NCBI GenBank assembly: GCA_903864935.1 | Contig: CAIPHT010000014.1 | Span: 1 to 42,985 of the forward strand | Length of the DNA: 42,985 bases | Reading direction: 5' to 3' | From: Candidatus Vogelbacteria bacterium | GTDB lineage: Bacteria; Patescibacteriota; Minisyncoccia; Phycocordibacterales; XYD1-FULL-46-19 | Notes under the pieces: generated by a model | What the model was told of the DNA's origin: nothing | What the model saw: only the letters and a program-made list of their open reading frames with translations | The model's database searches: none | Program-made: the position numbers and the translations under genes | Shown: positions 3,438-21,476 of the stretch, one piece after another | Layout: each line of letters opens with the position of its first letter | How positions within the stretch are numbered: the first letter of the stretch is position 1

Positions 3438-4580
3438 TTAATTATTATATATTGTAATAGTTTTTTCGAGCATTTGCTTGAGGGAGAAATTTTGTTGGAC
3501 TTGGTGCTTAAGATTCATACCAGCTAGGTGGCGGTATTCTTTTTTCTTGATCATGAAGAGGAGGGACTTTTTAATCTCTTCGATATTGCCCTTTGGCACG
3601 AGGATACCTTGTTCGGCATCGGTGATTAGCTCGGGGATACCGCCAACTTCAGAGGCTATTACTGGCAAGCCGGCGAGGCCGGCTTCGAGAATAGAATAGG
3701 GGAGAGCTTCGGTGCGGGAAGTGAGGGTAAAAATGTCGAAGGCTTTGAGATAAGAGCGAGCATCTTCAACTCGGCCAACTAAGAAAATGCGATCATCCAT
3801 TCTCTTGTCTTTAATTAGTTTTTCGAGACGGGCCCGTTCTTCACCTTCACCGATAATAACCAAGTTTAAGGACCAACCAAGTGAATTGCCAAGTAGAGCT
3901 CGGACGGTCGCAGTGAAGGCTTCAATGAGATAATCCAAGCCTTTGTTTTTGTGGAGTTCGGAGATTGTGCCAATCCAAAAACGATCATTAGATTTTCCTA
4001 AAATTTCTTTTCTAGATATGGACCGTTCGAAGAGCTTTGCTGGACCAAGTCCATTATGAATAGTTGTAACTTTATCTCTTAAGCCAGACCAATTAACAAT
4101 TTCTTTTTTTAAGCTATCCGAGACGGTAATTATCTCATGACTTAAAATCATGGAGAGCCAGTGACTGAATTTAATTAAAATTTTTTGCCAGCTCGGCCGG
4201 TCCTCGTTGGTGGCTAGACCGTGCACTGTGAAGATAATTTTAGGAATACGGGCGAGTCTGCCGGCGAGGGCACCGAGGCCCCCAATCTTAGAACTATTAA
4301 GATGGATAACGTCGGGCCGTTCTTTAAGCAAGATGCTTAGAATATTCCAAAAAGATTGAAGTTCAGCGAGAATGTTGACGTCTCTTTGGAGTGAAGAGAT
4401 CTGTCGGGTTTTTATCCCGGCCGAGACCAGTTTTTCTCCCAGGATTTTTCCTTCACCAAAAATAACTGTGATATCAAAATCCGTTTTAGGTAGACTCGTA
4501 GCCAGATCATAGACATAACGTTGGGCTCCGCCGAAATTGCCCTTAGTGATAAAATAGAAAATCTTGGTTTTTGTAGCCAT
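3438..4580 (-). CDS. GT4 family glycosyltransferase
   Basis: GGAQRYV, IHLNSSKIG, FTVHG, IHNG, KGLDYLI and EALPYSILEAGLAGLPVIASEVGGIPE motifs. Confidence 0.92.
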   Translation of the reverse strand: MATKTKIFYFITKGNFGGAQRYVYDLATSLPKTDFDITVIFGEGKILGEKLVSAGIKTRQISSLQRDVNILAELQSFWNILSILLKERPDVIHLNSSKIGGLGALAGRLARIPKIIFTVHGLATNEDRPSWQKILIKFSHWLSMILSHEIITVSDSLKKEIVNWSGLRDKVTTIHNGLGPAKLFERSISRKEILGKSNDRFWIGTISELHKNKGLDYLIEAFTATVRALLGNSLGWSLNLVIIGEGEERARLEKLIKDKRMDDRIFLVGRVEDARSYLKAFDIFTLTSRTEALPYSILEAGLAGLPVIASEVGGIPELITDAEQGILVPKGNIEEIKKSLLFMIKKKEYRHLAGMNLKHQVQQNFSLKQMLEKTITIYNN

Positions 4581-7593: not shown

Positions 7594-8067
7594 ATGACTT
7601 TTTATGAATACTTAATTTATTTCTGTGCTGTAATTTTGCCTTGGGTCATGGGCGGGGGATTGATTGTTTATTTATTTTTCACCAAGAAAAAAATTAGCAC
7701 TCTTCGTTTGGTTGGCCTGTCATTTTTTAGCGCGCTCCTGGCTTGGTTTCTCGCGAGTTTGGTTAAGTATAATATTCCGAGCCCCCGACCATTTGAAGTC
7801 TACGCTAATCTTAAACCACTTTTTACAACGGCTCATGGCGACGCTTTTCCTTCTGGCCATGCGACTTTCTTGGGAGCGTTCGCGGTTGGGGTTTTCTTGC
7901 AAAGAAAGAAACTTGGGATAATTTTTATCGTTGGGGCTGGTCTTGTCGCTATTGCCCGGGTCTTAGCTAATGTCCACTGGCCAGCCGATGTAATTGCTGG
8001 GCTCCTGTTTGGGGCCTTAGTAGCGGTTGTTGTGGGTGGGGTTTATCACAAAGTCTATTCGAAATAA
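7594..8067 (+). CDS. PAP2-family phosphatase (candidate undecaprenyl-pyrophosphate phosphatase)
   Basis: K-x6-RP (KYNIPSPRP), FPSGHA and ARVLANVHWPAD motifs in a membrane protein. Confidence 0.88.
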   Translation: MTFYEYLIYFCAVILPWVMGGGLIVYLFFTKKKISTLRLVGLSFFSALLAWFLASLVKYNIPSPRPFEVYANLKPLFTTAHGDAFPSGHATFLGAFAVGVFLQRKKLGIIFIVGAGLVAIARVLANVHWPADVIAGLLFGALVAVVVGGVYHKVYSK

Positions 8068-8075
8068 CTACCCCC

Positions 8076-8112
8076 CCCCGCCACACCTCGGGCTCACTTG
8101 AGGTCTGGCGGG
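8076..8112. repeat. 37-nt palindromic REP-like element, copy 1
   Basis: 36/37 identical to 10399-10435; CCCGCC...GGCGGG arms. Confidence 0.85.
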
Positions 8113-8127
8113 GGAAAGGGGGTGGGT

Positions 8128-8163: not shown

Positions 8164-9474
8164 ATGACTAAGACACGTTTTTGGGCCATTATCCTGCTTT
8201 TAGTGGGTATTTTGATTGGCTATTTTAATTATTATTCAGAAGTTAATCCCCAGTGGAGCTTCTATCGTCCGTTTAAGTTGGGTCTCGATTTATCAGGAGG
8301 AAGTCGCCTCACCTATGAGGCTGATGTCTCTAAGTTGAACCCGGCCGATGTCTCTGATGCCATGTCATCCCTCCGCGAGGTGATTGATCGTCGTGTTAAT
8401 GCTTTTGGTGTTTCTGAGGCTATTGTCCAGACCGAGAGCTCGGCTCTATCTGGTACTGTCCACAATCGTTTGATTGTTGAATTACCAGGGGTCACTGATG
8501 TTAAGCAGGCTGCCAATATGATTTCTGAGACGCCACAGCTTGAGTTTAAGGTTGAAGGCGCTACCTCGACGGCGAACCTTGATGCCTCAAGCACTCCATG
8601 GTTGGCGACTGGTTTGACCGGACGTTATCTTAAGAAGTCCCAAGTTTCTTTCAGCCAGAATTCTTTGTCTCCTTCGATCTCTATTGAGTTCAATAGTGAT
8701 GGAGCCAAACTCTTTGATCAAATTACTAAAGCTAGCGTTGGCAAACGTGTAGCAATCTTGCTCGATAATCAGATTATCTCGGCGCCGGTTGTGCGGGAAG
8801 AAATTCGCGATGGCAAGGCGGAGATCAGCGGTCAATTTACTGTTACCGAAGCCAAGGACCTCGTTCGCAATTTAAACCTTGGAGCTTTACCTGTCCCAAT
8901 TAAGCTAGCCTCCACTCAGGTGGTCGGCGCAACCTTGGGTACCGAAGCGGCCAAGAAGGGGGTCGAAGCTGGCATCATTGGCCTTCTTCTTGTCGCCATC
9001 TTCATGTTGCTTTGGTATCGTTTGCCCGGTCTGGTCTCGATTGTCGCCCTATCTATCTATGTGATGATAATGTTGGCCATTTTCAAATTAATGCCTGTGA
9101 CTCTAACGGCCGCTGGTATGGCTGGTTTCATCCTCTCCATTGGTATTGCTGTCGATGCGAATGTTCTTATCTTCGAGCGTTTCAAAGAAGAGTTGGCTAA
9201 GGGTAAGTCTCTCCACGCGGCTGTTACTGAAGGTTTCTCTCGCGCTTGGCTCTCTATTCGTGACTCCAATCTCTCCAGTATTATCTCGTCCATTATCCTC
9301 TTCTGGTTTGGGACAAGCATGATTAAGGGTTTCGCCTTAACTTTAGCTCTGGGTATCATTGTTAGTATGTTTACCGCTGTGGTGGTCACTCGAACTTTCC
9401 TTCTAGCGCTTGGCTTCCGGCAGTCGAACCGGCTAACCCGCTTCTTATTCGGTAATGGTTTCTTCAAAAATTAA
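8164..9474 (+). CDS. secD: Protein translocase subunit SecD
   Basis: LGLDLSGG, RRVNAFGVSE, GALPVP, VGATLG, DANVLIFERFKEEL and IRDSN motifs. Confidence 0.97.
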   Translation: MTKTRFWAIILLLVGILIGYFNYYSEVNPQWSFYRPFKLGLDLSGGSRLTYEADVSKLNPADVSDAMSSLREVIDRRVNAFGVSEAIVQTESSALSGTVHNRLIVELPGVTDVKQAANMISETPQLEFKVEGATSTANLDASSTPWLATGLTGRYLKKSQVSFSQNSLSPSISIEFNSDGAKLFDQITKASVGKRVAILLDNQIISAPVVREEIRDGKAEISGQFTVTEAKDLVRNLNLGALPVPIKLASTQVVGATLGTEAAKKGVEAGIIGLLLVAIFMLLWYRLPGLVSIVALSIYVMIMLAIFKLMPVTLTAAGMAGFILSIGIAVDANVLIFERFKEELAKGKSLHAAVTEGFSRAWLSIRDSNLSSIISSIILFWFGTSMIKGFALTLALGIIVSMFTAVVVTRTFLLALGFRQSNRLTRFLFGNGFFKN

Positions 9475-9478
9475 ATAT

Positions 9479-10393
9479 ATGTTTATTATCAAACATCGTC
9501 GTTATTTCTTTGTTTTCTCCCTTGTTCTTATCCTTGTTTCTCTATTCTCTTTAATGACCTATGGACTTAACTTAGGTATTGATTTTAAGGGTGGTTCGAT
9601 TATCGAAGTTGGCTATCTCGCTCAACGTCCCGCTCTTGATCAAATTAAGACGAGCCTCGCCCCGCTTAACCTCGGAGCTTACACCTTGCAACCGGTAGGG
9701 GATAAGGCCGTTTCGATTCGTCTTAAGGAATTAGATCAGACTGGCAAAGATTCTCTAATGAAAGCCTTGTCGCTCAATGGACAAGCTCCCGTTAAAGAAA
9801 ATCAGTCAAGCACCATCGGCCCTTCTCTTGGTAAGGAGCTCGAGACTAAGGGAATGATTGCTATCGTAATTGTTGTCTTGCTCATTATCATCTTCGTTGC
9901 CTTCGCCTTCCGCTCTGTCTCTTATCCAATCAAATCGTGGAAGTATGGGGTGGCCGCAATTATCGCTCTCGTTCACGATATCATTATCGCCGTTGGGGCA
10001 ATGTCGCTCTTAGCTCACTTTTTTGGGGCTGAGGCTGACGCCTTGTTCCTAACGGCCTTGTTGACCATTCTTGGTTTGTCAGTTAATGACACCATTGTTA
10101 TTTTCGACCGTATCCGTGAGAACTTGAGACTTAAGATTAGCAATAGCTTCGAAGAGGAGGTGGGGATTAGTTTGGGTCAAACCATTATTCGCTCAATGAA
10201 CGTTACTTCGACTATCGTTATTGTCTTGGTGGCCATGCTTCTCTTTGGTCCAGTTTCGATCAAATACTTCACCGCCGTCTTGATTGTTGGTATGATCTCG
10301 GGTGCCTACTCGTCCATCTTCGTGGCCGCCCCTGTTCTTGTTGAATGGGAAATGTGGTCCCGCAATAAAGCGGTGGCTAAAATTAAACGCTAA
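9479..10393 (+). CDS. secF: Protein translocase subunit SecF
   Basis: LGIDFKGG, IGPSLG, ALVHD, SVNDTIVIFDRIREN and GAYSSIFVA motifs. ATG 9479, just after the secD stop, preferred. Confidence 0.96.
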   Translation: MFIIKHRRYFFVFSLVLILVSLFSLMTYGLNLGIDFKGGSIIEVGYLAQRPALDQIKTSLAPLNLGAYTLQPVGDKAVSIRLKELDQTGKDSLMKALSLNGQAPVKENQSSTIGPSLGKELETKGMIAIVIVVLLIIIFVAFAFRSVSYPIKSWKYGVAAIIALVHDIIIAVGAMSLLAHFFGAEADALFLTALLTILGLSVNDTIVIFDRIRENLRLKISNSFEEEVGISLGQTIIRSMNVTSTIVIVLVAMLLFGPVSIKYFTAVLIVGMISGAYSSIFVAAPVLVEWEMWSRNKAVAKIKR

Positions 10394-10398
10394 AAAAT

Positions 10399-10435
10399 CC
10401 CCGCCAGACCTCGGGCTCACTTGAGGTCTGGCGGG
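10399..10435. repeat. 37-nt palindromic REP-like element, copy 2
   Basis: cccgccagacctc...gaggtctggcggg, a perfect 13-bp stem immediately after the secF stop. Confidence 0.85.
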
Positions 10436-10745: not shown

Positions 10746-12239
<1,494 letters not shown>

Positions 12240-13226: not shown

Positions 13227-13303
13227 GCGCGTGTAGCTCAGGTGGTTAGAGCGCGTCACTGATAATGACGAGGTCGTAGGTTCGAGTCCTACCATGCGCA
13301 CCA
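13227..13303 (+). tRNA. tRNA-Ile(GAT) with encoded CCA
   Basis: Full 77-nt cloverleaf: acceptor GCGCGTG/CATGCGC, D stem GCTC/GAGC, anticodon stem CGTCA/TGACG with loop CTGATAA, T arm GTAGG-TTCGAGT-CCTAC, then ACCA. Confidence 0.98.
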
Positions 13304-14044: not shown

Positions 14045-14077
14045 GTCTCTTCGGGGACTTATGCTAGAATGCTTTAT

Positions 14078-17000
14078 ATGGAAATCAAATCTAGATTTGA
14101 ATTTTTTAGACGAGATAATATTACTTATCTTGATAGTGCCGCGACAACTCAAGTTCCTGATCAAGTGATTCGATCAGTGGAACAAGTTTTGCAATACCGA
14201 GGCAACCCAAGTCGTAGCGCTCATTTAGTTTCTCTCCGCAATGAAGAGTTGCTAGCTGAGGCCAGAGCTAATATTGCCAAATTTATTGGGGCTGAAGCTG
14301 AAGAGATCGTTTTCTCTGGTAATGCTACTGGGGCCTTAAATCTAGCTGTTGATTCTATTGCTGATCTGATTAAGAAAGATGACGAGATAATTATCTCCGT
14401 GGCTGAACATAATTCTAATATGTTGCCTTATCTTAAGTTGGTAAAAAGAGGGGCGAATATTCGAATTGTCGGGATCAAAGATGGGGTAGTGAGTCTTGAT
14501 GAAATTAAGAAGACCCTAAACGACAAAACAAAAATTGTCGCCATTGGCCATTGTTCCAATGTTTTGGGCAATATTAATGATGTCGAAGAAATTGGGAAGA
14601 TTGTCAAAGATCATAACAAAGACATTTTTTATTTTATTGATGGGACCCAAGCCGTGGCGCATCTCCCCGTTGACGTGAAGAAAATTCAAGTTGATTTCTA
14701 TGCTTTCTCCAGTCACAAGATGTATGGTCCCGATGGTGTGGGTGTTTTGTTTATTAAAAAAGATATTCATCATTTATTAACTCCTACTCAAGTTGGCGGG
14801 GGGACAGTGAAGAACGTGGCTGTTACTTATGGTCAAGAAAAGGATATTATTTCTCCTGAGTATCATCAATCTCTAATTACGTTAGAAGGGGGGACACCGA
14901 ACACTTCAAATATTATTGGTCTTTCAAGAGCGGTTTATTTTATCCGTTCTCTTGGGTTAGAAAATATCAGGAAGCATGAATTAGAGTTATTAGAATATCT
15001 TATTGAGGGATTAAAGAAGATAGAGGAAGTTATCGTTTTTGGCCCTGAAGATTTTACTAAAAAAATTGGCCTAGCTTCTTTTGGCTTAAAAGACCATTCC
15101 GTAAAAGAGCTCGGTGATTATCTTGGCCGTCAAAAGATTTGTATTCGTTATGGTTCCCATTGCGCTTTTCCTTTGGCCGATAAATTGGGCCAAGAGAGTC
15201 TGCGTATTAGTTTTGGGGCTTATTCTGATATTGAGGACATTGATCGAATATTGGGCGAAATAAAACTCTTTTTTGATAAGAAAAAAGGTCTGATAAAAAA
15301 TCCTAATTTAGAAATTCTTAAGAATAAAATTTATTACAAAAATACTTTTATCACTCAATCGATAGGGTCTATTTTGGATAAATTAAGATCTGCTATATAT
15401 AATCCAGCTGAGACAGAAGTTGTTGTTATGGGTGGTCATTTCTTGGCTATCCCGGACATGCAAGATAATAAATTTTGGCCCAGTATCAAGCCGATGCTAC
15501 CAGAGAGGCTTCATGGTTTACTTGAAGAGTTCGGGATGACTTCTTTCCCCCTATTTTCCTGGGAGATGGCTTGCCAGACTGTGTCGAAACTTAAAGAACA
15601 AGGCGTTAGGGCCAAGCTTCTTATTGTGGCTAACGATACCACTGGGATTAACGAATTGAGACTTTCTAGCGCTAATAAAAATTCTCGGACAGCCGAATCT
15701 TATCGAGATGAATTACTGGCTCTGTTTGCTGGGGATGACGGAATACCCAAAGAATATGTCGAGATCTTAAAGAAATACAAATTAAGCAAAAAGGACCTTA
15801 TTAAAAGTGGTAAGGACTGCTTTATGCGGGAGACTATCTTACGCGCTAATTTCAAGAAATTTATCAGCGGAAATAAGAAATTCTTTGATGGGGTTATAAA
15901 TTATTCGGCCGAGGAAGGGGAGAACATTGATGTCGCTATTAATATTCTTGATAACCAGCAAATAAAGACTTGTAGCTTCCAAACCTTTAATTCTAAGACG
16001 GGAGGAAGATTTTGTATCGCTGAAGTCGCCGAATTGATGGCGGAGCTATTTGGTAAGGCCCCAGATGTTAACTTCGATTTCTTAAAAGAAAAAGTTAAGG
16101 AACCAAAAATTGAAGGCAAACATAAAATTTTTGTCATGTATTCTCCGGCCATGTGTGATAACGCTATCACAAGAGGAGGGGAACTCTACACGAAGGTGTT
16201 TTTGCAAGAAAAAGGTGTGGGTTCCTTTAAATTCTTTAATATACCATTAGGCCCTAATGCTGAGAGAGATCTTGCGATAGGCACTGAGATGAAATATATT
16301 TCAGATAAGGATTCGCTTGAGGTCTTGAATGTTGAGACTGAGCCAAGTTTTGCTGATCTGTGGAAGATTACTGAATATAATCTTCTCTATAATAGTAGCG
16401 CTTATGCTGATGAGGTAGAAAGTGTTTTTGAGAAAATTGGTATCAATAAAAATTCTAAGATATTGGACACTTGTGTCGGCCCTGGCTTTTTCTCGACCGA
16501 ATTACTGCAGCGAGGCTATAATTTAAGTACGGCTGATATTAGCGAAGAGACAATTAAACCATTTTATAAAGGTCTAGAGGAACTTGGGATTGAACATAAA
16601 GTTACCAAGTCTGCTTGGCTAGATTTGCCGAAGAATTATACTAAAGAATCTTTTGATATCCTCTTTAATCGTGGAAACTCGTTTATTTATGCCGCTGGCG
16701 GCTGGAATGAGGAACTTCCTGTAAACAAGGAGAAGTCGTTAGAAATTTTCTCGCAAACCTTGAAGATTTATTATGACTTACTAAAACCAGGAGCTTATCT
16801 CTATATTGATAAGTTTAGAGACTCAGAAATCCCCGACAAAAAAGTTGCGGCCAGACTAGAGATTACGGATTCTAAAGAAGAAAAGGATGTCATGTTTTTA
16901 GTAGAAAGACGCCCTGAAGAAAATACACGTTTTGCCCAATTGTCCTTGCGTGATACCTCTGATAATAAGGAGAAAATGATGTTGACGGGGTTGGTCTATG

Positions 17001-17113
17001 ATCTCAGTGAGGGAGAAATGGAGGATTTGTTAAAGAATGTCGGTTTCAAAAAGGTAGACAAATTAAGTCTTAAAGAAGAAAGGCATTTCGTTGTTTGGTT
17101 GGCGCAAAAATAA
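14078..17113 (+). CDS. Three-domain fusion: group II (SufS/CsdA-like) cysteine desulfurase + unknown domain + class I SAM methyltransferase
   Basis: YLDSAATTQ, EHNSN, DGTQ, SSHKMYGP (PLP Lys) and RYGSHCA (catalytic Cys); C-terminal LDTCVGPG and NRGNSF. ATG 14078 preferred because 14069 overlaps the -10 box TGCTAGAAT. Confidence 0.88.
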   Translation: MEIKSRFEFFRRDNITYLDSAATTQVPDQVIRSVEQVLQYRGNPSRSAHLVSLRNEELLAEARANIAKFIGAEAEEIVFSGNATGALNLAVDSIADLIKKDDEIIISVAEHNSNMLPYLKLVKRGANIRIVGIKDGVVSLDEIKKTLNDKTKIVAIGHCSNVLGNINDVEEIGKIVKDHNKDIFYFIDGTQAVAHLPVDVKKIQVDFYAFSSHKMYGPDGVGVLFIKKDIHHLLTPTQVGGGTVKNVAVTYGQEKDIISPEYHQSLITLEGGTPNTSNIIGLSRAVYFIRSLGLENIRKHELELLEYLIEGLKKIEEVIVFGPEDFTKKIGLASFGLKDHSVKELGDYLGRQKICIRYGSHCAFPLADKLGQESLRISFGAYSDIEDIDRILGEIKLFFDKKKGLIKNPNLEILKNKIYYKNTFITQSIGSILDKLRSAIYNPAETEVVVMGGHFLAIPDMQDNKFWPSIKPMLPERLHGLLEEFGMTSFPLFSWEMACQTVSKLKEQGVRAKLLIVANDTTGINELRLSSANKNSRTAESYRDELLALFAGDDGIPKEYVEILKKYKLSKKDLIKSGKDCFMRETILRANFKKFISGNKKFFDGVINYSAEEGENIDVAINILDNQQIKTCSFQTFNSKTGGRFCIAEVAELMAELFGKAPDVNFDFLKEKVKEPKIEGKHKIFVMYSPAMCDNAITRGGELYTKVFLQEKGVGSFKFFNIPLGPNAERDLAIGTEMKYISDKDSLEVLNVETEPSFADLWKITEYNLLYNSSAYADEVESVFEKIGINKNSKILDTCVGPGFFSTELLQRGYNLSTADISEETIKPFYKGLEELGIEHKVTKSAWLDLPKNYTKESFDILFNRGNSFIYAAGGWNEELPVNKEKSLEIFSQTLKIYYDLLKPGAYLYIDKFRDSEIPDKKVAARLEITDSKEEKDVMFLVERRPEENTRFAQLSLRDTSDNKEKMMLTGLVYDLSEGEMEDLLKNVGFKKVDKLSLKEERHFVVWLAQK

Positions 17114-17131
17114 GAGATTAGACAAATAATT

Positions 17132-17935
17132 TTGGAAGATACAAATAGCAAGAAAATTTTAGAAATACATGCCAACCCAACCTTAGATGAGGTTTGGGAT
17201 TTATGTGTAAGGAATTTCCTTTATGATCAAAAAAAGTATGTGAACGAAGTACTAGAAATTTTTGCTCGACTTGGGATAACCAAAGAATCAAAGATCGCTG
17301 ATGTTAGTGCTGGCGGGGGATTTCCCGCTCTTAATCTTATTGCTTTGGGCTACAAGGTGGATTGTTTTGATGGCTTTGCCACCGACTTATTTGATCAAAA
17401 TGCCAAAAAAGAGGGGCAAGATGTGACATGTAAAAAGGCTCTTTGGGAGGAACTCCCTGAGCTGGTTTCTCCTGGCGAGTATGATTTTGTTTTTTGTCGA
17501 GGCAATTCATTTATTTATGCTGGCGGGGGTTGGTCAGAAACATCCGGTTTTGATATTGAGAAGGTTAGAGCTGATTATATTAAAACGGCCAAAATTTTTG
17601 CCGGGATGTTAAAGGCCGGTGGCTATATGTATATAGATAAATTCAAAGATAGCGAACTTGGGTATAGAGAAAAACTTGCCACAATAAAAGTTGGGAGCAA
17701 CCTTGAGGACTTAGTATTTTTTTCAGAAAGATCCCCTGAAAGTAAGTTAAGAAAGGCTTCTGTCCAAAGAATGGCTGGTGGAGATGTAACTAACTTTGAG
17801 GTAAAAATTACTTATGATCTATCAAAAGAAGAATTAATTAATTTTTTGAAAGAGGGAGGATTTTCTGATGTTGAGGTTATTAATTCTGAGGTCCCCGAAG
17901 AGAAGCATTTTGACGTCTGGTTGGCAAAAAAGTAG
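17132..17935 (+). CDS. Class I SAM-dependent methyltransferase, glycine/sarcosine N-methyltransferase-like; paralog of the upstream C-terminal domain
   Basis: IADVSAGGG motif I and FCRGNSFIYAGGGW; TTG start. Confidence 0.82.
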   Translation: MEDTNSKKILEIHANPTLDEVWDLCVRNFLYDQKKYVNEVLEIFARLGITKESKIADVSAGGGFPALNLIALGYKVDCFDGFATDLFDQNAKKEGQDVTCKKALWEELPELVSPGEYDFVFCRGNSFIYAGGGWSETSGFDIEKVRADYIKTAKIFAGMLKAGGYMYIDKFKDSELGYREKLATIKVGSNLEDLVFFSERSPESKLRKASVQRMAGGDVTNFEVKITYDLSKEELINFLKEGGFSDVEVINSEVPEEKHFDVWLAKK

Positions 17936-17984: not shown

Positions 17985-19496
17985 ATGACTAGTTATAGGG
18001 GCTATTTTAAGGATAAAAAAATTACCGTGCATGGGCTTGGGCTACTTGGCCGGGGGATTGGCGATGTAATTTTTTTGGCCAAAGAAGGGGCGGATTTGAT
18101 TGTCACGGATTTGAAGGTCAAGGATGATTTGGCCGATTCGTTGGTAAGAATTAAAAAAGAATTAGGCGAGACTTTATATAAAAAAATTAAGTTTGTTCTT
18201 GGCGAACATCGGCTCGGGGATTTCAAAAATCGAGACTTTATTTTGAAAGCAGCGGGAGTGCCCTTAGATTCGCCATTCATTGCCGAAGCGCGCAAAAATA
18301 ATATTCCTATTAAGATGGATGCCTCGTGGTTTGCCGAGCTGGCGCCGGAAGGGGTAATTATTGTTGGAGTGACCGGGACGAGGGGGAAATCTACTACGAC
18401 GCACTTAATCCATGAAATTTTAGAAGCTGCCCAAGGACTCTCCTTTGGGAACCTCTCAAGGAAAGTCCTTGGGCAGGAGAAGGCGGCTCTCGGCAAGATT
18501 TTTCTTGGCGGTAACGTACGAGGACTTGCGACATTGCCCTTGCTTAAGAAAGTAAAGGCGGGGGATATTGTGGTGATGGAGTTGGACTCGTGGCAACTGC
18601 AAGGCTTCGGTGATTCTAAAATTAGCCCAAATATCTCGGTCTTCACCAACTTGATGGTGGATCATCAGAATTATTATGGTTCAGCGGCGAAGGCTATGGG
18701 AGGGGATCCGATGGATATGTATTTTGCTGATAAAGCGAATATTTTCTTGAATCAGAAAGAGGGAGACGAATTAGTTTGTAGTAAGGAGGTTTTAGGTTTG
18801 ATAAGAAAAAAATACCCCGTAAAACTCGCGAAGCTCGTAACGGGGCAAGTAAGAAATTTTGCTGGCCAAGCGATTGTCCCCGATGCTGGAGTGGTGCCTA
18901 AGAGTTGGAAGGTAAAATTACTCGGTGAGCACAATCGCTTGAACATTGCTTATGCGGTGACTGTGGCGAGAATCTTAGATATTCCCGAGAAGATAATTAA
19001 AACAGCGGTAGAAAATTACGTCGGCGTACCGGGCCGCCTAGAATTTGTCCGCGAAGTGAAGGGGGTGAAATATTATAACGATACTACTGCGACAACACCG
19101 GATGGGGTGATTGCGGCGTTGAAGGCTCTTGGTGGTTCCCAAGGACGGTCCTTTGGGGGCCGTTCAAGGACCGTCCTTGGGAACATTGTTTTGATTGGTG
19201 GCGGCCGCGACAAAGAATTAGACTACAAAAAATATGCGCCAGTTGTTAAGAAAAGTGTTAAATCTCTGGCTCTTTTTGCTGGCACCGGTTCAGATAAAAT
19301 AATTAAAGCTCTTGGAAAAACAAAATTCCCCGTAAAAGTTTTTGATAATATGCCCGAGGCTTTCGCTTGGTCTAATAGCTTTGCCAAGAAAGGGGATATC
19401 GTTTTACTTTCTCCCGGCGCGGCTTCTTTTGGTGTCTTCAAAAATGAATTCGACCGTGGCGATCAATTTGTCGCTCAGGTTAAGAAATTAAAATAG
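17985..19496 (+). CDS. murD: UDP-N-acetylmuramoyl-L-alanine--D-glutamate ligase
   Basis: GLGLLGRG, GVTGTRGKSTT, GGN, ELDSWQL, GEHNRLN, GRLE, YNDTTAT, GGRDK and LLSPGAASFGVFKNEFDRG motifs. Confidence 0.96.
   Translation: MTSYRGYFKDKKITVHGLGLLGRGIGDVIFLAKEGADLIVTDLKVKDDLADSLVRIKKELGETLYKKIKFVLGEHRLGDFKNRDFILKAAGVPLDSPFIAEARKNNIPIKMDASWFAELAPEGVIIVGVTGTRGKSTTTHLIHEILEAAQGLSFGNLSRKVLGQEKAALGKIFLGGNVRGLATLPLLKKVKAGDIVVMELDSWQLQGFGDSKISPNISVFTNLMVDHQNYYGSAAKAMGGDPMDMYFADKANIFLNQKEGDELVCSKEVLGLIRKKYPVKLAKLVTGQVRNFAGQAIVPDAGVVPKSWKVKLLGEHNRLNIAYAVTVARILDIPEKIIKTAVENYVGVPGRLEFVREVKGVKYYNDTTATTPDGVIAALKALGGSQGRSFGGRSRTVLGNIVLIGGGRDKELDYKKYAPVVKKSVKSLALFAGTGSDKIIKALGKTKFPVKVFDNMPEAFAWSNSFAKKGDIVLLSPGAASFGVFKNEFDRGDQFVAQVKKLK
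18429..18474. repeat. In-frame palindromic element A within murD
   Basis: gcccaaggact/agtccttgggc 11-bp arms plus inner stems; encodes AQGLSFGNLSRKVLG. Confidence 0.88.
18815..18845. repeat. In-gene CCCCGT...ACGGGG palindrome within murD
   Basis: Same arms as the intergenic hairpin at 12481-12509; loop contains GCGAAGC. Confidence 0.55.
19135..19184. repeat. In-frame palindromic element B within murD
   Basis: Perfect 19-bp inverted repeat gttcccaaggacggtcctt/aaggaccgtccttgggaac; encodes SQGRSFGGRSRTVLG. Confidence 0.92.
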
Positions 19497-19498
19497 TT

Positions 19499-20134
19499 AT
19501 GGAAGAGGTTGATAAATATGCCAAGATAATTTGGGAGTATATGCTAATGCACCACAGCCTCGAACCAATGGATGCAATTTTTGCTCTTGGCTCAAATGAT
19601 ATTCGTGTGGCCGAAAGGGCTGCCGAACTGTATCTCCAAGGCCAGGGGAAATACGTGATATGTTCTGGCGGTAACGGTAAGGCTTCAACTCTACCGAAGA
19701 CGGAGGCAGAAGTCTTTGGTGATGTGGTACTCTCTAAAGGGGTTCCTCAAGATAAGATAATATTAGAACCTAATGCGACGAATACTGGCGAGAATGTTAT
19801 TTTTACTAAAAAACTTTTAGCTGAAAAAGGGTTAAACTTTGAGTCTTTTGTCTTGGTTCAAAAGCCCTATATGGAGAGACGAACTTTTGCTACTTTTAGA
19901 AAACAGTGGCCAGAAGCAAAATGTGTCGTCACTTCGCCTCAAGTCTCTTTTGAGCAATATTATAATAAGGATGAAGATCTGAAAAATAGGTTTATAAATG
20001 TTATGGTTGGAGATCTACAAAGGATTAAAGAATATCCAGCCAGGGGTTTTCAAATTTCACAAGATATTCCAGCGGATGTTTGGGAAGCTTATGAAAAATT
20101 AGTCTCCCTCGGTTATACTAAGTATGTAACTTAA
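19499..20134 (+). CDS. YdcF/DUF218 family protein
   Basis: DAIFALGSND, SGGNG, EAEVF, ILEPNATNTGEN and VQKPYMERR motifs. Confidence 0.88.
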   Translation: MEEVDKYAKIIWEYMLMHHSLEPMDAIFALGSNDIRVAERAAELYLQGQGKYVICSGGNGKASTLPKTEAEVFGDVVLSKGVPQDKIILEPNATNTGENVIFTKKLLAEKGLNFESFVLVQKPYMERRTFATFRKQWPEAKCVVTSPQVSFEQYYNKDEDLKNRFINVMVGDLQRIKEYPARGFQISQDIPADVWEAYEKLVSLGYTKYVT

Positions 20135-20138
20135 ATAT

Positions 20139-21476
20139 ATGAATTTCAAAGATACGGAAAAAGTTTATTTTATTGGGATTGGAGGAATTGGTATTTCAGC
20201 TCTGGCTCAATTGATGCACCACGAAGGGAAGACTGTTTCTGGGACAAATGATAATCCTAGCCCCGAAACCTTAGACCGAGTTCGAGCTTTAGGTATAGAA
20301 ATTAATATTGGTGCCGATATAGATAAGGTGCCCAAAGATGCGGATTTGATTGTTTATAGCTTGGCTTGGGATGATCGCGAGCCAGAATTTATGAAGGCTG
20401 TTCGTGCTCTTGGTATCCCGGTTTTCTCTTACCCTCAAGCTCTTGGTTTGGTTTCGGTTGATAAATATACTATTGCGATTTCTGGTACTCACGGCAAGAC
20501 CACGACTACTGCCATGATTGCCGAGATGATGATTGAAGCGAAGCTTGATCCGACAGTGATAGTGGGGTCGCTTCTTAAATCGGGCTCCAACTTTGTTCCT
20601 GGTGAGAGTAATTATTTTGTGGTTGAGGCTTGTGAATATCGCCGTTCATTTTTAAATCTGAATCCTAATATCGCAATTATTACCAACATTGATAATGACC
20701 ACTTAGATTATTATAAAGATCTCGCTGATATCCAAAGTGCTTTTGTCGAGTTTGTTGGCAAACTTCCGGCAGATGGATTTCTGATTTGCGATACTGATGA
20801 TTTGCTTCTCGTCCCCATTATTGAAGCCGCCAAGAAAGTCGGCGCGCAAATAATTAATTATCGTGCGCCGAGAGAAGAAAACAATGAACTTGGAGGTGAA
20901 ACCTCCAAGTTGGATTTGAAAGTCCCCGGGGAGCATAATATTAAGAATGCAATGTGCGCGCTGTCGGTGGGGGAGATATTGAAAGTCAGCCCCTCGACTG
21001 CGCTCGGGGCACTAAACAAGTTTAGTGGCACCTGGCGGCGTTTTGAATTTAAGGGTGAGACGAAAGAAGGAGCTCTGGTTTATGATGACTATGCACACCA
21101 TCCGACCGAGATCAAAGCTTCTATTTTAGGGGCACGAGAATTCATGAAGAAGCGGGGATTGGAGGGTAAATTAATTATTGCCTTCCAACCCCATCTCTAT
21201 AGCCGAACGAAGTTGCTCAAAGATGATTTTGCCGAGGCCTTGGCTCTGGCGGATCAAGTCATCTTGCTTCCAATTTATGCCGCCCGCGAACCGGTTGACC
21301 CGGAGATAACTTCAGACATTTTAGCCGAATTAATTAGGGCTAAAGGCGGAGCTGTGGATAGCGTCCAGAACCCCCTAGAAGCCTCTAAAATGGCCCTAGA
21401 ACAGGCTCAAAGGGGCGATTTGTTGATTACTATGGGGGCAGGAGATGTTTCCCAATTGGCCTCAAATTTGCTATAA
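20139..21476 (+). CDS. murC: UDP-N-acetylmuramate--L-alanine ligase
   Basis: FIGIGGIGIS, GTHGKTTTT, VEACEY, DNDHLDYY, GEHN, RRFE, DDYAHHPTEI, FQPHLYSRT and MGAGD motifs. Confidence 0.97.
   Translation: MNFKDTEKVYFIGIGGIGISALAQLMHHEGKTVSGTNDNPSPETLDRVRALGIEINIGADIDKVPKDADLIVYSLAWDDREPEFMKAVRALGIPVFSYPQALGLVSVDKYTIAISGTHGKTTTTAMIAEMMIEAKLDPTVIVGSLLKSGSNFVPGESNYFVVEACEYRRSFLNLNPNIAIITNIDNDHLDYYKDLADIQSAFVEFVGKLPADGFLICDTDDLLLVPIIEAAKKVGAQIINYRAPREENNELGGETSKLDLKVPGEHNIKNAMCALSVGEILKVSPSTALGALNKFSGTWRRFEFKGETKEGALVYDDYAHHPTEIKASILGAREFMKKRGLEGKLIIAFQPHLYSRTKLLKDDFAEALALADQVILLPIYAAREPVDPEITSDILAELIRAKGGAVDSVQNPLEASKMALEQAQRGDLLITMGAGDVSQLASNLL
20887..20911. repeat. In-gene perfect palindrome within murC
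   Basis: aacttggaggt-gaa-acctccaagtt, an 11-bp stem encoding ELGGETSKL. Confidence 0.75.

Follow-up and report, generated by a model that had tools for sequence, protein, structure and literature searches.

The question raised by this locus is why the essential gene murD of a Candidatus Vogelbacteria bacterium (Patescibacteriota) carries two similar palindromic sequences within its reading frame. The window, i.e. the whole analysed stretch of 42,985 nt from contig CAIPHT010000014.1 (assembly GCA_903864935.1), had been described in an earlier note made from the DNA letters alone, which proposed a family of coding palindromic repeats analogous to the Rickettsia palindromic elements (RPEs). The answer developed here is that the two units are probably REPIN-like doublets, i.e. 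inverted pairs of repetitive extragenic palindromic (REP) sequences folding into one hairpin, which belong to a Patescibacteria system of REPs and REP-associated tyrosine transposases (RAYTs) and survive in frame in tolerant loops. The gene and the two units are located as follows:

17985..19496, + strand: murD, UDP-N-acetylmuramoylalanine--D-glutamate ligase, 503 aa (open reading frame (ORF) list, Pfam), host of both elements
18427..18476, + strand: element A, REPIN-like hairpin, translated as aa 149-163
18427-18445: left arm of element A, holding the REP AAGGACTCTCCTT at 18433-18445
18446-18457: loop of element A
18458-18476: right arm of element A, with AAGGAAAGTCCTT at 18458-18470
19135..19184, + strand: element B, REPIN-like hairpin, translated as aa 385-399
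19135-19153: left arm of element B, holding the REP AAGGACGGTCCTT at 19141-19153
19154-19165: loop of element B
19166-19184: right arm of element B, with AAGGACCGTCCTT at 19166-19178

Each item that had been described for the two units was found in the sequence. Counted from 18429 and 19137 they share 36/45 nt, and the 44-nt units 18430-18473 and 19138-19181 show an identity of 82% (36/44) in the same orientation and the same frame. Translation yielded the expected peptides of the pattern A/S-Q-G-x-S-F-G-x-x-S-R-x-V-L-G, namely AQGLSFGNLSRKVLG for A and SQGRSFGGRSRTVLG for B, which are identical at 10 of 15 positions. Both hairpins comprise 19-bp arms and a 12-nt loop with a complementarity of 100% in B, as had been claimed, and of 95% in A (one mismatch). 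The three outermost pairs differ between A (CTG/CAG) and B (GTT/AAC), yet are complementary in each copy, so that the reported matching of arm differences on both sides was also correct. Folding energies of -36 and -39 kcal/mol (z = -5 to -8) were obtained on either strand. The full pattern had no match in 100 shuffles, and CCCAAGGAC occurred four times compared to an expectation of 0.33. These two are the only copies of the murD sub-family in the 43-kb window. Each arm contains a short imperfect palindrome, as is typical for REPs, at the four positions listed above, and the palindromes of each unit form an inverted doublet which folds into one hairpin, as is typical for REPINs; in the family the spacer is 10-14 nt long.

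The product of the host gene carries Mur_ligase_M/C and MurD_N (MurD-like_N) according to Pfam, its best solved relative is Streptococcus MurD 3lk7 (E=2.6e-34), and its orthologues with 60-88% identity bear the name MurD in metagenome-assembled genomes (MAGs) of Paceibacterota. In the alignment to 3lk7, A and B are both insertions into short loops. An AlphaFold model of the window MurD (mean predicted local distance difference test (pLDDT) 84.8, predicted template modelling score (pTM) 0.83) places insert A between helix 135-151 and strand 172-176 and insert B between helix 372-386 and strand 401-406, which agrees with the earlier placement between a helix and the next strand. Values of pLDDT below 50 were obtained only at 153-167 and 385-397, i.e. 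in the two inserts, while the residues invariant over 40 homologues, including the GTRGKST P-loop, are intact, as had been stated for the catalytic motifs. Judged by this model, the inserts are presumably translated into two disordered surface loops of ~15 residues, and most likely they are neutral and have no function of their own. An intein, an intron or an element excised from the mRNA was rejected on sequence grounds, as the units are too short, all inserts in the eight murD genes and 62 ORFs compared are stop-free with a length of 3n and no splicing signature was seen.

For the comparison of orthologous sites, the closest 40 MurD homologues (Paceibacterota MAG proteins with about 60-88% identity, numbered P) were aligned, as well as the codons of eight murD genes with DNA (the window and the orthologue loci L001-L007). 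The 40 homologues comprise segments with sporadic in-frame presence and absence at ~10 sites, A and B included. Several orthologues (P0006, P0021, P0024 and others) lack the inserts at both sites; orthologues without the inserts are 70-76% identical, and P0006 is the closest one with both sites empty. Site B is empty in L007, where ALKALAG directly precedes SNIILI, while the other 7 of the 8 murD genes carry a hairpin of 44-50 nt at this point with differing stems (CCCAAGGACGGTCCTT, GCCAAGGACTCCCCTT, GAGGGTAACCCTT, GTCTCCAA..CTCTCCTT). The same pattern holds true for site A, which is either empty or occupied by differing hairpins. In L006, a second hairpin of 30 nt is nested in the loop of the site-B hairpin. 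All inserts in the eight genes have a length that is a multiple of three and are stop-free in the host frame. Based on these alignments, the murD units are insertions and not ancestral sequence.

Within one genome, copies A and B are more alike than orthologous copies across genomes. They share the loop TGGGAGCAGTTC in L005 in spite of different stems, they have a loop in common in L003, and in L004 they are near-identical and inverted relative to window copy A. Accordingly, the picture of a clean one-off insertion has to be refined: from genome to genome the same site changes its hairpin sequence, while the copies of one genome are made alike.

The murC genes showed a comparable behavior. In L005, murC carries GTTGCCAAGGACTCTCCTTTGGGGGCAATTCAAGGAAAGTCCTTGGCAAC, which is read there in another frame as AKDSPLGAIQGKSLA, and murC of L004 likewise holds the element. 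L007 contains a relative with a 22-bp stem at the same codon, and four other murC genes, the one of the window among them, are empty at this site. The element in L004 murC is a clean 48-nt insertion between AAG and TCGGGT. No target-site duplication was seen at this junction; instead, the insert carries ACCCGA, the complement of the downstream host flank TCGGGT. As a further observation, L007 contains its own variant ACGACGGTCATT...AATGACCGTCGT in two unrelated genes (murC 3818-3865 and a TraG-like gene 7688-7732), which suggests genome-specific master sequences.

These data bear on the simplest interpretation, namely that the murD units are ordinary lineage-specific loop extensions kept for protein function, with incidental palindromic DNA. 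Although the similar peptides (10/15), the position of both units in frame and the intact catalytic motifs would fit such an origin, it is already contradicted by the murC copy, which comprises the same DNA in another frame, and by the non-coding copies, which make up half of the family. Furthermore, orthologues of 70-76% identity do without the inserts and the model gives disordered loops. This interpretation is therefore considered extremely improbable.

The distribution of the family was determined with the pattern AAGGACNNTCCTT-N(10-14)-AAGGANNGTCCTT, which comprises 22 fixed bases, in one genome per species; by our own calculation, fewer than 0.1 matches are expected by chance in the 596 Gb scanned. 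At least 119 loci in species-representative genomes matched, nearly all of them from Patescibacteria and often several per MAG. Hosts among the matches listed were Nomura-, Kaiser-, Vogel-, Terry-, Taga-, Adler- and Berkelbacteria as well as Paceibacterota. One MAG (JBAXYM01) contributed at least 7 loci and others at least 3-4, while the window holds two copies plus one of another sub-family in 43 kb. Thus, the search for further copies proposed in the earlier note was successful in other genes and genomes, whereas the window itself added none to the two murD copies. The two situations which that note had named as speaking against its proposal were both not encountered: the segments are not present in all orthologues without palindromic DNA, and further copies exist. 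An assembly artefact was ruled out, as the family recurs in hundreds of independent assemblies. The same pattern gave no match in 2.9 million viral contigs, so that there is no sign of the element riding on phages. The taxonomic label of a few bins with the element is Gammaproteobacteria, Bdellovibrionales, Lachnospiraceae, Burkholderiales or Pseudomonadales (L009, L067, L025, L033, L045, L050, L075, L083). Their GC content of 34-52% lies within the range of the Patescibacteria loci, and both a mislabelling and a wider host range are possible.

All following statistics on location, phase and pairing rest on 120 copies among the matches listed. Inside ORFs of at least 150 aa, with at least 25 aa on either side, 62 copies (52%) were found, which differs from the extragenic predominance expected of REPs. 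Compared to the coding density of the loci (86%), the elements are under-represented within genes, but by no means kept out of them. Many of the copies outside ORFs adjoin the 3' end of a gene, and both orientations occur. Scanning of 20 host ORFs revealed housekeeping genes in all cases (20/20), with most elements lying between Pfam domains: PheT, TGT (twice), class-V aminotransferase (twice), trigger factor, a ComM-like ATPase, an amino-acid kinase, PurH, LigA, PriA, PilB, SMC/RecN, UvrB, PolA, SecA, GyrB, TopA and IleRS. In the case of TGT, the element occupies the same profile position in two proteins which are only 45% identical. An extreme multiple invasion of one essential gene was observed for TsaD of L102 (1856-3241, + strand, 462 aa), which contains five separate strong in-frame hairpins (at 2174, 2298, 2480, 2709 and 2866); TsaD homologues in L055 and L124 also bear the element.

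The inserts in all 62 ORFs have a length that is a multiple of three and are stop-free in the host frame. Their reading phases were distributed as 29, 27 and 6, and the rare phase (phase 0) was never combined with loops beginning with AA. This observation can be explained by the TAA stop codon that would arise, a filter which is expected if the copies are translated. Since all three phases and both orientations are represented among the intragenic copies, the element is a DNA unit and not a peptide. Consequently, of the proposed coding-repeat family the part stands that peptide would be added to core enzymes, while the family is not specifically coding, with about half of the copies being intergenic or located at gene ends. 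The dispersal of a palindromic family, in frame, in surface loops of core Patescibacteria enzymes is supported by the empty sites and the further copies, and modelling as well as the phase count, both suggested beforehand, gave low-confidence loops for both inserts and an occupation of all three phases.

The loop AAGAGAGTTTCCCC was seen nine times, and near-identical elements of 40 nt recur in different genomes, both in genes unrelated to one another and in intergenic regions. In the flanks neither a target-site consensus nor a target-site duplication was found, only a C...G extension of the stem. Another explanation would be that the palindromes were formed locally, by replication template-switching or hairpin-end repair in loops tolerant of length change, and spread between nearby sites by gene conversion without any transposition. 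The stems indeed reach into the host flank, as seen from ACCCGA versus TCGGGT in murC of L004 and from the outer pairs of the window copies, which are specific to each site. The loops shared by copies A and B in L003, L004 and L005 point to gene conversion. However, a local origin does not explain the near-identical elements in different genomes, and AAGG-N5-CCTT, the motif of the arms, has been kept throughout the phylum and beside RAYT genes. As an explanation for the whole family this origin is highly improbable, whereas template switching may account for the stem extension and the perfect stems.

With regard to the pairing, the two free stem positions were complementary in 104/120 copies, compared to 1 in 16 by chance, which means that the arms are in inverted orientation. 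The second free base was G in 95/120 copies, and each arm is thereby itself a palindrome of the form AAGGAC-N-GTCCTT. For 14 murD/murC hairpins, chosen from indels of the protein alignments, 95% of the cells pair and in 12 of 17 pairs both sides have changed, which was matched by none of 500 shuffles. In a blind scan of 976 kb for hairpins, 315 strong ones were obtained, of which 132 lie in coding sequence, and a superfamily of the form AAGG-N5-CCTT / loop / AAGG-N5'-CCTT emerged, the middle of which covaries. At 17209, 33683 and 40986 the window contains further AAGG-N5-CCTT 13-mers; they have no extended palindrome and were treated as chance. Altogether, the elements form a dispersed repeat family at the DNA level, which lies in frame in many core genes, keeps its pairing and is present or absent at orthologous sites.

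Stable hairpins with such covariation could also be selected mRNA structures, for example pause sites for translation between domains, targets of RNase III or elements conferring stability, and thus be regulatory and not selfish. The stability (-36 to -39 kcal/mol, z down to -8), the strong stem covariation and the many copies between protein domains are in favor of this explanation. However, the antisense hairpin is equally stable, and copies in both orientations and between genes occur. Mismatches of intragenic hairpins showed no excess of G-U on the sense strand (7 G-U, 5 A-C and 17 other). Since this bias is missing and the antisense strand folds equally well, the constraint is read as acting on DNA or on both strands and not on the mRNA, albeit with small numbers of mismatches. 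The elements are also sporadic among close orthologues of an essential gene, and the placement in linkers would equally be expected from purifying selection on random insertions. A search against Rfam 15, in which gathering scores were applied to the whole window and E values of up to 10 were allowed for the murD region, gave no family at threshold; below it, only generic hairpin look-alikes such as miRNA precursors and potC (30 bits compared to a threshold of 44 bits) were obtained. Therefore, a function as mRNA structure is regarded as quite improbable.

A candidate enzyme was obtained by clustering all ORFs of the at least 119 element loci. Besides housekeeping families recurring near the elements (UvrA, ATP synthase, RecJ, TsaD, EF-G, SecD, GyrB, UvrB, ComEC), the sole recurrent family was a protein of 215-260 aa, which was present in 9 of these loci; no other recurrent transposase family, including DDE transposases, was found among the loci listed. 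All nine proteins are hits to NCBIfam NF047646 'REP-associated tyrosine transposase' (E down to 3.5e-19), where the single score available lies below the curated cut-off, and also to Pfam Y1_Tnp (E down to 5e-15). Among solved structures, E. coli TnpA-REP (4ER8) ranked first with the profile of the family, and both PNHFH (the HUH motif) and YIHLNP (the tyrosine motif) are conserved. In L087, CAAGGAC-N-GTCCTTG lies 10 and 21 nt from the two ends of the RAYT gene, and in L035 three copies of AAGGACGGTCCTT follow downstream, while at the RAYTs of L018, L097 and L085 one or both sides are occupied by other palindromes.

A metagenome scan with the RAYT protein alignment gave at least 472 relatives, of which 80 loci were kept for flank analysis. 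A short palindrome with a loop of 3-5 nt was located at a gene end in 67/80 loci and at both ends in 36/69, and 34 of those 36 share an 8-mer. The AGG..CCT apex was present in 37/67 of the flanking palindromes. The arms of the window elements themselves were recovered in this position: the copy B arm AAGGAcggTCCTT exactly flanks the RAYT of L165, as in L087 and L035, and the copy A arm AAGGACTCTCCTT/AAGGAGAGTCCTT exactly flanks the RAYTs of L166 and L135. Hence, RAYT genes flanked by the same REP exist in related genomes. In addition, RAYTs with the same REP apex are more alike, with an identity of 46.7% compared to 42.4% (permutation, 1 in 2000). Palindromes of the flanking type also occur inside RAYT genes (L064 5116-5142, L071 635-655), and in L203 the RAYT gene is followed downstream (about 945-1100) by AGGCCCGGCCTCGAACA units repeated in tandem, an arrangement which resembles the REP clusters known as bacterial interspersed mosaic elements (BIMEs).

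Based on these findings, we infer that the elements are mobilised by RAYT via a single-strand mechanism. Indirect signs of such a movement are the presence or absence of the doublet at orthologous sites, its occurrence in unrelated genes and the nested copy. The unit consists of two 13-nt REP-type palindromes (AAGGAC-N-GTCCTT or AAGGACTCTCCTT), the inversion of which gives a hairpin of ~50 nt and thus the REPIN architecture, and it is a member of the superfamily described above, whose repeats are scattered over Patescibacteria genomes. It may be presumed that the RAYT, an HUH/Y1 enzyme, binds the hairpin in its folded single-stranded form and relocates or copies the doublet in the manner of IS200/IS605-type enzymes; such an action on a hairpin has been proposed for REPINs and shown for IS200/IS605 (PMC3337134, PMC6006769). 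Since the genomes are ~86% coding, many copies would land in genes, where those would survive which have a length of a multiple of three, are stop-free in the host frame and lie in tolerant loops or inter-domain linkers. Occupied sites could later be overwritten, converted or re-invaded by the current variant of the genome, as a result of which the arms would stay complementary and the copies in one genome alike. The extension of the stem into the host flank is not accounted for by RAYT action, and a 'palindrome perfecting' by template switching would be a plausible addition.

A number of observations do not fit easily to a REP-RAYT origin. Neither the window nor L001-L007 contain a RAYT gene, and consequently the link is one by family and not for the genome of the window. 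The presence of RAYT near elements (9 of the at least 119 loci) stands without a proper background rate, and many RAYTs adjoining AAGGAC elements are flanked by other palindromes (L018, L071, L064). The REP lacks the GTAG/CGTC tag; its conserved part is the AAGG/CCTT or AGG..CCT apex, and the flanks show only the C/G stem extension. According to their motifs (NHFH, F[EQ], YIHLNP; 215-260 aa), the RAYTs look like subclass 2.1 / Group 1, which was reported without REPs (PMC6006769), an assignment made by reading the motifs against Table 1 of that paper. The recurrence at the same codon of TGT at 45% identity requires either a strong target preference or strong selection. Finally, the junctions of the murD insertions are not clean and the stem continues into host-derived flank, as in L004 murC, which is not what a simple cut-and-paste predicts.

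For these reasons, a palindromic element similar to RPEs or to MITEs (transposable elements of miniature size with inverted repeats), moved by another transposase or by recombination, has to be considered; the association with RAYT would then be coincidental and only the motif shared. The data on dispersal, frame and presence/absence fit such an element equally well, and the missing RAYT in the window, the other palindromes at several nearby RAYTs and the absence of classical REP tags are in line with it. On the other hand, the palindromes at the RAYTs of L087, L035, L165, L166 and L135 are identical to the element arms, the AGG..CCT apex occurs in 37/67 RAYT loci, the similarity of RAYTs tracks the REP apex, and no other transposase family recurs among the at least 119 loci listed. 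The L004 murC junction shows neither a target-site duplication nor terminal inverted repeats beyond the hairpin itself, and together with the lack of a recurrent DDE transposase among the loci listed this does not agree with a classical MITE. A different mobilising activity therefore appears unlikely, and the REP-RAYT origin is retained as the probable explanation.

Compared to known systems, the closest kind is REP/REPIN with RAYT (TnpA-REP) tyrosine transposases (Nunvar 2010, PMC2817692; Bertels & Rainey 2011, PMC3116915, PMC3337134; Quentin et al. 2018, PMC6006769). Short imperfect palindromes, inverted doublets forming one hairpin with a variable spacer, several copies per genome and the same palindrome at both ends of an HUH/Y1 RAYT gene are common to both, and REP sub-families and RAYT lineages appear to co-vary. 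In contrast to classical REPs, which are almost wholly extragenic, 52% of the sampled copies lie in frame inside genes. The unit is also smaller, with 13 nt and a 3-nt loop and a doublet of 44-50 nt compared to ~90 nt, and the GTAG/CGTC foot (PMC3733652, PMC6006769) is replaced by the conserved AGG..CCT apex. Moreover, the host phylum Patescibacteria is absent from the published REP-RAYT surveys. In-frame REP insertions have been described in tnpA-REP genes of subclass 2.4 in Cyanobacteria and Bacteroidetes and were called unique to the transposase gene (PMC6006769). The present elements resemble them in that REP hairpins lie in coding sequence with the frame kept, and palindromes also lie inside the RAYT genes of L064 and L071; the hosts here, however, are dozens of unrelated core genes and not the transposase gene itself.

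The RPEs (PMC1779305) are likewise palindromic repeats which occur in frame at tolerated surface positions, add peptide and have intergenic copies. In this respect the analogy drawn in the earlier note was appropriate; however, the likeness is functional only and a relation in sequence is not expected, as RPEs are ~100-150 bp long and confined to Rickettsia, while the present elements are 44-50 nt long, phylum-wide and have a candidate transposase, which places them closer to REP/REPIN. Hairpin repeats of organelles, i.e. the repetitive hairpin elements (RHEs) of sponge mitochondria (PMC2800124) and the coding palindromes of Nematomorpha (PMC6649704), also invade genomes and can overlap coding sequence with the frame kept, but their sizes and sequences are different and they have no associated transposase, so that they represent an analogy only. 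In our literature search, the coverage of which was incomplete, no paper was found linking palindromic, hairpin, MITE, REP or RAYT elements to Patescibacteria or the Candidate Phyla Radiation. Consequently, the status of a Patescibacteria REP-RAYT system as unreported is provisional.

By name REP elements are extragenic, and in-frame palindromic invaders of genes have mainly been a curiosity of Rickettsia. New in the present case are the scale (phylum-wide, dozens of core genes), the definition at the DNA level and the candidate mobilising enzyme. Gene-invading palindromes are found across one of the largest bacterial radiations, in murD, gyrB, secA, polA, ligA and aminoacyl-tRNA synthetase genes, and with RAYT a mechanistic candidate is at hand which is lacking for RPEs, for which no transposase is known to us. 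The elements account for many of the sporadic low-complexity insertions which lengthen Patescibacteria proteins and hamper their alignment and modelling; annotators and structure predictors should be aware that such segments are repeat-derived. At the same time, the inserts are natural markers of permissive loop sites in essential enzymes, and REP-RAYT biology is extended to tiny, gene-dense symbiont genomes with almost no intergenic space. A more far-reaching, tentative interpretation would be a phylum-wide REP-RAYT system whose repeats habitually enter essential genes, driven by a RAYT group thought to be REP-less, with the occupied loops serving as landing pads re-invaded by the current REPIN variant. 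It is suggested by the same codon being filled by different hairpins (murD, murC, TGT), by the nested copy and by the homogenisation within genomes, but on balance it is less probable than its opposite. If it applies, a selfish single-strand DNA element would continually supply the core proteins of the whole phylum with new surface loops and linkers.

Two further hairpins were detected in the mur genes of the window:

20887..20911, + strand: AACTTGGAGGTgaaACCTCCAAGTT, in-frame hairpin in murC (ORF 20139..21476), 11-bp stem and 3-nt loop (hairpin finder)
18815..18845, + strand: weak hairpin CCCCGT...ACGGGG (-13.5 kcal/mol) in the 13-codon murD insert VKLAKLVTGQVRN (aa 278-290)

The murC hairpin, the third in frame in the window, looks like a single REP of another sub-family. 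It lies within an extra protein segment, EENNELGGETSKLD, which is missing in 6/6 murC orthologues compared, and it is similar to palindromes which flank RAYT genes, for example TTGGGAGGAaatTCCTCCCAA in L150 and L152. The insert VKLAKLVTGQVRN is shared by P0006 alone among the 40 aligned orthologues, and it is uncertain whether its hairpin belongs to the repeat family.

Two copies of another hairpin, which are identical in their loop (CCCGCCAGACCTC gggctcactt GAGGTCTGGCGGG), are located at 8075-8114 and 10400-10435, directly past the ends of two ORFs (7594..8067 and 9455..10393), and represent a second, intergenic family of palindromic repeats in a terminator-like position. The window also contains a full-length 16S rRNA gene (10746-12239) without insertion and, ~1 kb downstream, a tRNA (13227-13300). 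Since no 23S rRNA follows the 16S within the window, the rRNA genes appear to be unlinked. At 14069-17113, a class-V aminotransferase of 1014 aa is fused to a methyltransferase-like C-terminal part and shows 95% identity to the L006 orthologue. The following ORF of 267 aa (17132-17935) is 35% identical to the L006 orthologue of the fusion, which suggests a duplicated part of the fusion gene.

Between murD and murC, the window contains an ORF of 211 aa (19499-20134), and the P0006 contig has a DUF218 gene of 211 aa in the same position, while in L001, L002, L004 and L006 murC lies next to murD without an intervening gene. Within murC, at about 20139+3*205 to +3*230 (alignment columns 240-264), the window, L006 and L001 have in common a 25-residue segment, DGFLICDTDDLLLVPIIEAAKKVGA, which L002, L004, L005 and L007 lack. 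Since this segment forms no hairpin, it is regarded as an ordinary indel, which separates two murC clades.

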